Positions 2,157 through 3,316 of a stretch of DNA of 5,266 nucleotides are shown here, one piece after another. The stretch covers positions 1 to 5,266 of IMG/VR virus record IMGVR_UViG_2671180651_000012; one strand, 5' to 3'. The notes below the pieces were generated by a model. The model did no database searches. It worked only from the letters and a program-made list of their open reading frames with translations, and had not been told where the DNA came from. The DNA is from a virus (lineage: Duplodnaviria > Heunggongvirae > Uroviricota > Caudoviricetes). The translations under genes and the position numbers were made by a program. How positions within the stretch are numbered: position 1 is the stretch's first letter; each line of letters begins with the position of its first letter.

Positions 2157-2345
2157 TTATCCAGCCGGTGTTTCGTTATTCAGGTACAGCGATACTTTTT
2201 TTAACGGGAGGCATTCACCGGGGATTTTTTGTTCGTCCCTTACCTGAATGCAGGATGACTTACTGTAATAAATTCCGGTAATCACATTCTGCGGCTCACC
2301 CGTTATAAGAAAAACGGTCATTATCAGTGCAAACGCTGAAGTCAC
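2157..2345 (-). CDS. hypothetical small protein (62 aa) with hydrophobic N-terminus; possible small membrane peptide
   Basis: GTG start at 2343-2345 overlaps the TGA stop of the upstream ORF (GTGA), suggesting translational coupling; GGAG about 7 nt upstream. N-terminal TSAFALIMTVFLITG is hydrophobic. No family recognised. Confidence 0.35.
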   Translation of the reverse strand: MTSAFALIMTVFLITGEPQNVITGIYYSKSSCIQVRDEQKIPGECLPLKKVSLYLNNETPAG

Positions 2346-2530
2346 TGCTGTTCTCCGATAATACCAAGTTCAAGAAGGGCAATTCTGGAAAGTATGGAAT
2401 TATCATTAAGAAGATAAGGTTCATATTTTCTCATCTTAATGGCATCTTCAGTAAACTCCCGGTTACTGAGCAGAACTCCAATATCAAAACAACCTTCAGA
2501 CGTATTAACGTTTGGTAATAACGTTTCCAT
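2342..2530 (-). CDS. hypothetical small prophage protein (62 aa)
   Basis: ATG at 2528-2530 preceded by GAGGA at about 7 nt spacing. The track ORF 2342-2635 starts at a GTG with no Shine-Dalgarno, so the internal ATG is preferred. Same strand as recE. Product METLLPNVNTSEGCFDIGVLLSNREFTEDAIKMRKYEPYLLNDNSILSRIALLELGIIGEQQ, no family recognised. Confidence 0.5.
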   Translation of the reverse strand: METLLPNVNTSEGCFDIGVLLSNREFTEDAIKMRKYEPYLLNDNSILSRIALLELGIIGEQQ

Positions 2531-2635
2531 TATCGCGTCCTCAACAATGAATTTTGTGATGCAGTGCCTGGTGCCTCCAGGTGACGTTAACCAGTTAACA
2601 ATTAACGCCGGATACAGAGAATCCACCCATAACAC

Positions 2636-3097
2636 TGTTTTTGGTTTTAACTGTTCCGCGTGCGCTTAGCCGCATTCACCGCATCACAAAATTCACTTTA
2701 AAAAGGGCGGCAGAGCAGCCACGGAGTAAAACTGATACCGCCAAACGTCACCAGAAAATTGATAACAGAGGGCGTTGCAGCGGGGTTGTCACTTAAGCGT
2801 ATGGTCAACCTGACAACCCGGTGTCCTCAACGGGGAAGGAATAATCCCGCCATACTTACCGCCGCGCCATTTCGCGGAGTGCCACAACCGGAAGCGCACG
2901 GTCGACGAAAATTTAACGACAGGCTATCTATGAACCAGCTACCTCGCCGTGCGCTTTCGCGTTATGCCCTGACTTTTCAGGGAAATATCCTTTCAGTAAA
3001 CTGTCAGTGCCGGATGCTCACCCGTGTCCGGCGCACGCACTCCACCTCACCCGTGGAGAACTCCTTAATTACCAACCTTAGCTTCGTTGGTTAGCTA
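2636..3097 (-). other. GC-rich non-coding segment dense in hairpins; candidate structured RNA or cis-regulatory element of the leftward operon
   Basis: Minus strand has stops in all three frames within a few codons throughout. The only plus ORF (2759-3094) is Arg/Ser/Thr-rich, has no RBS and looks like a GC-rich translation artefact. Perfect inverted repeats: 2783-2791/2811-2819 (9 bp), 2862-2866/2873-2877 (5 bp), 2967-2972/2977-2982 (6 bp), 3007-3014/3027-3036 (8 bp with 2-nt bulge), 3040-3045/3053-3058 (6 bp), 3071-3076/3086-3091 (6 bp). Confidence 0.4.
2696..2745 (-). terminator. candidate intrinsic terminator/attenuator on the minus strand
   Basis: On the minus-strand RNA, GGCGG (2738-2742) pairs with CCGCC (2706-2710) and is followed by a U5 run (2700-2704). 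The loop is long (27 nt) with only partial inner pairing, so this is weak. Confidence 0.25.
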
Positions 3098-3316
3098 TTA
3101 ACGCGGGTATGTAATCATTCTGGCAATGCTTAATGCCGCTGCTTTTTCCAGATTGGTGATATCCTGCTCCAGAGCGGACAGATTTTCAGCTTGCTTAGCC
3201 CTGGCTTCATTGGCCCATTTCAGGTCCTGCGCTGCCTTAATTTTCTGGTGCATCCACTCATAAAGTTCATCATCGGTATAGTCTGGCGCGATGATGACGG
3301 GTTCTCGTTTCTGCAT
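3098..3316 (-). CDS. hypothetical small prophage protein (72 aa), predicted helical/coiled-coil C-terminal half
   Basis: ATG at 3314-3316 preceded by AAGGAG at about 6 nt spacing (minus strand reads CCACAAGGAGCCGAC ATG). TAA stop at 3098-3100. Product MQKREPVIIAPDYTDDELYEWMHQKIKAAQDLKWANEARAKQAENLSALEQDITNLEKAAALSIARMITYPR. Confidence 0.7.
   Translation of the reverse strand: MQKREPVIIAPDYTDDELYEWMHQKIKAAQDLKWANEARAKQAENLSALEQDITNLEKAAALSIARMITYPR

Follow-up and report, generated by a model that had tools for sequence, protein, structure and literature searches.

The dicBF operon was first described in the Qin cryptic prophage of Escherichia coli K-12, in which it runs ydfA-ydfB-ydfC-dicF-dicB-ydfD, with RNase III/E processing and control by dicBp and DicA having been reported for it (PMC10448788). 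Its small RNA (sRNA) DicF represses ftsZ, xylR and pykA (PMC5069750), DicB is a MinC-/ZipA-dependent inhibitor of cell division that, via MinC, also inhibits ManYZ and so excludes lambda-like phages (PMC6832061), and YdfD is a lysis protein that reportedly binds IspG, the lysis being division-dependent and DicB or SulA rescuing the cells (PMC8835842); no function is known for YdfC (10.1101/2025.03.22.644768). The kilR/racC/ydaE/sieB block of the K-12 Rac prophage, which lies between recE and the immunity region, seems comparable in its contents, as it combines an FtsZ-directed division inhibitor (KilR; DicB and DicF would be the counterparts in the dicBF operon) with phage exclusion (SieB; the counterpart would again be DicB) (PMC6832061). 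The stretch of DNA analyzed here (“the window”, i.e., all of the 5,266 nucleotides (nt) at positions 1-5,266 of the IMG/VR virus record IMGVR_UViG_2671180651_000012, Caudoviricetes) holds a block of small minus-strand genes at 2157-3316, at the same site between a RecE-like exonuclease gene and an immunity region, and this interval can with high confidence be assigned to a dicBF operon of the Qin type, of which it comprises ydfC, dicF, dicB and ydfD, and which resides in a mosaic lambdoid prophage.

The small genes of the interval are already known ones, namely, ydfC, dicB and ydfD, plus the sRNA gene dicF, and they share both order and orientation with those of K-12 Qin, where they likewise adjoin a lambdoid immunity region. 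The three minus-strand open reading frames (ORFs) singled out by the initial annotation (3098-3316, 2342-2530 and 2157-2345) are present in the ORF list, the AAGGAG, GAGGA and GTGA motifs it had pointed to can all be read on the minus strand, and the block was correctly placed between recE and the immunity region, where lambdoid phages keep their host-modulating genes. The description of these genes as “unannotatable” was wrong, as RefSeq annotates this very allele (as dicB and a DUF1482 protein), and DicF, which lies inside that same interval (2705-2757), had been overlooked, something that happens easily to an sRNA gene when ORFs alone are read. The best match of the whole window among the complete E. 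coli genomes (megablast) reaches 86% coverage at 91.9% identity, no high-identity match extending over the full length, and the RefSeq names lying under the megablast match in the closest genomes are ydfC, dicB, DUF1482 family protein, exonuclease and toxin YdaT family protein.

Inside the block lies dicF (2705-2757, minus strand), a 53-nt antisense sRNA gene recognized by Rfam RF00039 at 75 bits (gathering score of 48, E-value of 8e-16, model positions 1-52 of 52), of which 52 out of 53 nt are identical to K-12. The sole change, A39G at window position 2719, turns a U-A pair into a U-G one in the inner stem of DicF, the minimum free energy (MFE) fold being as in K-12, and it falls within an unpaired bulge of the duplex predicted with the ftsZ ribosome-binding site, for which -38.5 kcal/mol was calculated with both variants; a terminator-like 3' hairpin followed by a T run is found at 2722-2707. 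Next to this intact DicF lies a structured precursor region: the 340-nt ydfC-dicF spacer (2758-3097, minus strand), when compared to K-12 Qin in 40-nt windows, reaches 92-100% identity, and folding of 2700-3100 on the minus strand yielded an MFE of -150.6 kcal/mol (z = -3.0 versus shuffles), which fits a putative role of the spacer as an RNase III/E processing substrate (PMC10448788). On the other side of dicF, the dicF-dicB spacer (2531-2704, minus strand), i.e., the dicB 5' untranslated region (UTR), is 95-100% identical to K-12, and dicF is thereby found 174 nt upstream of the dicB ATG. Two further observations pertain to these spacers. A 111-amino-acid (aa) Arg-rich ORF (2759-3094, plus strand) runs antisense through the structured ydfC-dicF spacer and has a similarly located “hypothetical protein” in the RefSeq record of E. 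coli O103:H2 12009 (L084, 5084-5428), being probably an annotation artefact of the GC-rich structured RNA sequence, and a sub-threshold match to the prophage sRNA family STnc100 of Rfam was seen at 2498-2707 on the minus strand (34.7 bits, gathering score of 47, E-value of 6e-5, full model length), which may point to a structured element of prophage origin that the dicB 5' UTR has in common with it.

The dicB gene (2342-2530, minus strand, 62 aa) encodes a member of the cell-division inhibitor family and represents a common non-K-12 allele. Its ATG (at 2530), preceded 7 nt upstream by GAGGA, is internal to, and in frame with, a 97-aa ORF starting with GTG (2342-2635), the upstream part of which falls into the dicF-dicB spacer, while the DicB match comprises residues 36-97 of that ORF. 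Matches to both Pfam PF05358 (129.5 bits, cut-off of 27, residues 1-62 on model positions 1-62) and NCBIfam NF049927 (111 bits, cut-off of 100) were obtained, and every invariant column of the DicB family is retained in the window protein. Over the whole length, the identity to K-12 DicB is 61%, whereas the first 14 residues (METLLPNVNTSEGC in the window versus MKTLLPNVNTSEGC in K-12) have 13 identical positions, with K2E being the only change and L5 being kept. This is the part of the protein for which the most is known from K-12, in which the approximately 14 N-terminal residues are essential, L5 is critical, some residue is required at position 2 (K2A, K2G and K2R being tolerated), the last 8 residues are dispensable, and activity is lost in part when 12-20 C-terminal residues are deleted (PMC4967827). 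The DicB family as such is very narrow, the 1.84 billion representatives containing 16 clusters of it (50% identity); several of these clusters are frameshifted tails and one is a chance match. The latter, a 2,950-aa protein with nine DicB-like stretches (P0114), was considered as a DicB relative and rejected as a chance compositional match to adhesin-type repeats. A protein identical to the DicB of the window is nevertheless encoded by at least 65 IMG/VR contigs.

The ydfD-type gene (2157-2345, minus strand, 62 aa, GTG start) encodes a DUF1482/YebW family homologue of the K-12 Qin lysis protein, as seen from the matches to Pfam PF07358 (51.1 bits, cut-off of 25, residues 4-61 on model positions 1-57) and phrog_1092 (110 bits), as well as from the 45% identity to K-12 YdfD (RefSeq “lysis protein”). 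PF07358 was found in all but two of the 103 YdfD homologues, and those that have been named at their source are called either DUF1482 or YebW family proteins. The protein is built from a hydrophobic N-terminal segment (mean Kyte-Doolittle value of 2.06 for residues 1-15, bearing out what the initial annotation had said of the start of this ORF) and a C-terminal domain with two conserved cysteines (C32 and C45), and all of the invariant columns of the family are present (L7, T10, V11, F12, L13, G16, E17, C32, K40, G43, C45, P47, K50, E58, P60, A61 and G62), including the E-x-PAG tail. As in K-12 Qin, dicB and ydfD overlap by 4 nt, the GTGA in which the ydfD start overlaps the dicB stop being preceded by GGAG 7 nt 5' of the GTG, and this translational coupling is retained in 80 of the 80 dicB copies in which it was counted among 85 related loci (GTGA in 69 and ATGA in 11, so that the start toggles between GTG and ATG only).

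Both dicB and ydfD are under purifying selection: when calculated over the distinct alleles from the 85 loci, dN/dS was 0.31 for dicB and 0.24 for ydfD in frame, as opposed to 1.4-1.8 in both of the shifted frames for either gene. Close relatives of YdfD are to be found beyond E. coli, with an 87% identical protein in E. albertii, which was also the only locus returned by the genome-contig scan with YdfD, single-protein queries of this kind finding close relatives only. Searches of the PDB with the YdfC, DicB and YdfD sequences gave no match at E-values up to 1.

Identity between the window and K-12 Qin amounts to 92-100% over ydfC, the spacer, dicF and the first ~16 codons of dicB, and to only 55-80% below that point, i.e., over the rest of dicB and ydfD, the drop in nucleotide identity marking a sharp recombination junction at dicB codon ~16 (window position ~2484). 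Given the position of this junction, the essential DicB N-terminus travels with dicF, and the C-terminal three-quarters of DicB travel with ydfD. Of 5,426 complete E. coli genomes, 1,021 carry the dicB-3'/ydfD segment, 17 of them (O103:H2 12009, where it is 100% identical over 391 nt, and 16 others) at an identity of at least 99%, and the version in PPompW and Stx2a-converting prophages shows 97% identity. These prophages resemble the window in having an annotated dicB and a DUF1482 or hypothetical protein gene followed by an exonuclease gene and differ from it in their upstream genes and immunity regions (strain 12009, for instance, has ydfA, a frameshifted ydfC and another repressor), meaning that the same dicB/ydfD module is found in different prophage backbones. 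In the window itself, a recE resembling that of Rac, a dicBF core resembling that of Qin and an immunity region of a third type have come together.

If the functions described for the K-12 homologues hold, leftward transcription would start from a repressor-controlled early promoter beside the immunity region and, upon derepression, yield a transcript spanning ydfC, dicF, dicB, ydfD and recE. RNase III and RNase E would cut this polycistronic RNA to release the 53-nt DicF (PMC10448788), the 3' hairpin of which might also serve as a leaky terminator, and DicF would pair with the ftsZ ribosome-binding site, and with the xylR and pykA mRNAs, to block translation (PMC5069750). DicB would bring MinC to the septum via ZipA, whereby the Z ring would be dissolved and division stopped, and, again via MinC, would shut the ManYZ inner-membrane channel and prevent the injection of lambda-like phage DNA (PMC6832061), both the division block and the phage exclusion being expected of the window DicB from what the K-12 protein does. 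YdfD, translated through its coupling to dicB, would lyse dividing cells; it reportedly binds IspG, which would lead to starvation for isoprenoid and cell-wall precursors, and the division arrest brought about by DicB would delay the lysis, as in K-12 either DicB or SulA prevents it (PMC8835842). The lysis and the IspG binding are thus likewise expected from the K-12 protein.

There are several points that weigh against such a full equivalence to the K-12 operon, the most general one being that the mechanistic steps were all established for the K-12 homologues and have been transferred to the window block. The DicB and YdfD of the window are only 61% and 45% identical to those tested proteins, respectively, with nearly all of the DicB differences falling after residue 16, and ydfD uses a GTG start. 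The window YdfD ends in ...ETPAG at G62, having no equivalent of the K-12 L63 (F63 in strain HCM-27C-1), as is normal for this YdfD allele class, and in K-12 YdfD single-residue deletions at the N- or C-terminus and L63A weaken the killing (PMC8835842). Its C-terminal domain carries a net charge of +1, as opposed to -3 in K-12, and so fits poorly to the published suggestion that the negative C-terminus of K-12 YdfD competes with the IspG substrate (PMC8835842). The AlphaFold2 models are of low confidence and too uncertain to interpret, with mean predicted local distance difference test (pLDDT) values of 58 for DicB (single sequence) and 56 for YdfD (16-sequence alignment). For ydfC, pN/pS was 0.58 in frame versus 0.64 and 1.45 in the shifted frames, too few substitutions being available for coding constraint to be demonstrable. 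On the regulatory side, the candidate leftward promoter (TTTACT at 3959-3954, a 17-nt spacing and TATCCT at 3936-3931, minus strand, overlapping a pair of palindromes described below) was picked by eye, matches 8 of 12 consensus positions and lies under the threshold of the promoter scan, which detected no above-threshold site for the leftward operon, and, unlike in K-12, an opposite-strand zinc-ribbon gene sits between this candidate and ydfC.

Some of these points could be taken to mean that the prophage is a cryptic one whose dicB/ydfD allele is decaying or has shifted in function, with one or both of the genes having lost the activity known from K-12 or changed target. The low identities to the tested proteins, the missing terminal residue, the different C-terminal charge and the GTG start of YdfD would all be in line with this, as would the truncated ydfD versions of 16, 54 or 56 aa that occur in a few of the related copies and the ydfC frameshift of O103:H2 12009. 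The dN/dS values of 0.24-0.31 among the window-type alleles, however, speak of continuing purifying selection, both of the ORFs are uninterrupted in the window, as they are in the vast majority of the copies, the start codon varies between GTG and ATG only, and the invariant family residues as well as the critical DicB N-terminus, L5 included, have been kept. A decayed or retargeted copy therefore seems unlikely. A narrower version of the idea, i.e., that this allele class, with a DicB that has diverged after residue 16 and a 45% identical YdfD lacking the terminal Leu and bearing the opposite C-terminal charge, has acquired a shifted specificity, is a long shot, too. Were it true, YdfD might, for example, hit another target or lyse cells in another way than by the proposed electrostatic competition at IspG, or the effects of DicB on ZipA/ManYZ might differ, and the version carried by roughly a fifth of E. 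coli genomes, many Shiga toxin-producing E. coli (STEC) strains among them, would then fall outside the K-12 model.

Another possibility is a dedicated two-component module made up of DicB and YdfD, of the toxin/antidote or exclusion kind, in which DicB would specifically neutralize or partner YdfD. The initial annotation had suspected a two-component toxic or exclusion module in the pair of a soluble protein and a putative membrane peptide, and, judging by the K-12 homologues, it came functionally close insofar as a soluble toxic protein and a peptide with a hydrophobic head are concerned. DicB and YdfD are indeed linked in 84 of the 85 loci (ydfA, ydfB and ydfC being variably present), the 4-nt overlap is universal among the copies counted, the diverged segment spans the C-terminal three-quarters of DicB along with YdfD, as though inherited as a unit, and co-expression of DicB stops the YdfD lysis in K-12, as stated in PMC8835842 with reference to Masuda et al. 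2016. Support for the two-component idea is, nonetheless, loose, because the lysis by YdfD is stopped equally well by SulA, which inhibits division but is unrelated to DicB (PMC8835842), which points to rescue via division arrest and not to specific neutralization. DicB is, furthermore, toxic itself and has its own targets, MinC/ZipA and ManYZ (PMC6832061), none of the PADLOC defence models matched YdfC, DicB or YdfD, and two YdfD recombinants (P0077 and P0089), in which a window-type N-half is joined to a K-12-type C-half, argue against strict co-adaptation of the two proteins. A dedicated module thus appears improbable, and a Qin-type operon, in which DicB would protect from YdfD by arresting division, is the preferred reading of the pair.

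It might also be asked whether these are genes at all, as the window holds 60 ORFs of at least 30 aa and frames of this size are thus frequent by chance, so that the mere presence of an ORF proves nothing and independent support is needed. For dicB and ydfD, this support is at hand, as chance ORFs are excluded by the frame-specific purifying selection along with the curated hidden Markov model (HMM) matches. The case that can be made for chance frames in a non-coding or RNA-only sequence mostly concerns ydfC (3098-3316, minus strand, 72 aa, ATG start), the first gene of the block, given that the DNA from ydfC to the 5' part of dicB is conserved regardless of coding and that the ydfC pN/pS is based on few substitutions. 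The encoded protein, however, shares 70 of its 72 residues (97%) with YdfC of E. coli K-12 Qin (b1573) and matches phrog_1744 over the full length (134 bits), no Pfam family being found for it; the ATG at 3316 is preceded by a strong Shine-Dalgarno sequence (AAGGAG, 5 nt upstream), the gene is placed directly upstream of dicF in the same synteny as in K-12, and all of its 72 codons are intact in 10 distinct alleles. Taken over the whole block, chance frames are thus highly implausible, and ydfC, too, is probably a genuine gene. That said, ydfC carries a frameshift in E. coli O103:H2 12009 (L084, 5564-5783) and was missing from the matches at over half of the loci with dicB, and it appears that the operon can do without it.

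Finally, that the ORFs would be new lambdoid host-modulation genes of the kil/ral/sieB/racC kind, as their Rac-like position might suggest (racC-ydaE-kilR-sieB occupy the same place), is scarcely credible, since none of the three products shows similarity to RacC, YdaE, KilR, SieB, RalR or RcbA (BLASTP with the full set of Rac early-left proteins, best E-value of at least 1) and since their clear homology to YdfC, DicB and YdfD of Qin refutes it. The comparison with Rac that the initial annotation had in mind thus yielded nothing at the sequence level for RacC, YdaE and KilR, its impression of novelty has to give way to homology with characterized prophage genes, those of Qin rather than Rac, and the likeness to the Rac block is that of site and contents, the mechanisms being different in that DicB acts through MinC and ZipA.

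The recognition of the block as a Qin-type dicBF operon removes a false “unknown genes” flag from what is a textbook prophage module known for blocking division, excluding lambda-like phages and being able to lyse the cell. It also draws attention to the fact that the DicB and YdfD studied in K-12 represent one allele class only, whereas the class present in the window is common in pathogenic E. coli and differs at features flagged in the K-12 studies as relevant to function, i.e., the C-terminal residue and charge of YdfD and the C-terminal three-quarters of DicB.

The surroundings of the block depart from K-12 Qin on both sides. Downstream, in the same direction, follows the RecE-like exonuclease gene (1-2064, minus strand, cut by the window edge), the product of which combines Exonuc_VIII (PF06630, 87 bits) with an Rv2179c-like domain (PF16473, 71.5 bits) and is 72% identical to Rac RecE over 551 aa, so that the label “recE” given to it by the initial annotation holds. 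K-12 Qin has an unrelated ydfE pseudogene and IS2 in place of such a full exonuclease gene; ydfE was considered as a remnant of the window exonuclease gene and rejected, there being just 8 identities over 32 aligned residues. Upstream, the window is devoid of ydfA and ydfB, and the place of these K-12 genes is taken by the zinc-ribbon gene mentioned above (3409-3609, plus strand, 66 aa, CxxC...CxxC), a member of the ECs_2282 family (NCBIfam NF047912, 57 bits, cut-off of 37), which is convergent with the dicBF-type operon and present in only 6 of the 85 related loci. A 118-aa minus-strand ORF overlapping it (3388-3744) is probably spurious.

Beyond the zinc-ribbon gene lies the putative early-left operator/promoter region (3931-3973, minus strand), with its weak -35/-10 candidate and two 12-bp palindromes at 3935-3946 (TACCCATAGGTA) and 3960-3971 (TACCCATGGGTA). 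These form the left pair (within 3935-3971) of four copies of the palindrome TACC(C/T)(A/G)T(A/G)GGTA that flank the 139-aa repressor-like gene (4014-4433, minus strand; phrog_5736 “transcriptional regulator”, 235 bits), the other two copies (ACCTGTGGGTAT and TACCTGTAGGTA) forming the right pair on the other side of that gene, at 4470-4481 and 4493-4504. The layout is like that of the lambdoid left and right operators (OL/OR) and of the DicA operators (PMC10448788), from which an operator/promoter function can be predicted, and the 139-aa repressor is presumed to be the controller of the leftward operon. It is not DicA, its C-terminus being weakly DicA-like at best (NCBIfam match of 23.9 bits, below the cut-off; 33% identity over 46 aa), and the rightward genes of the window, unlike those of K-12 Qin, are YdaS/YdaT-like. 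The immunity region as a whole (4014-5224) is a hybrid, consisting of the 139-aa repressor gene, a gene in the Cro position with a YdaS-like segment and a YdaT-family gene whose product is 32% identical to Rac YdaT. When read on the minus strand, the left palindrome pair also forms a hairpin with a 16-bp stem followed by a T run, so that a second role in terminating transcription of the repressor gene is conceivable for it.

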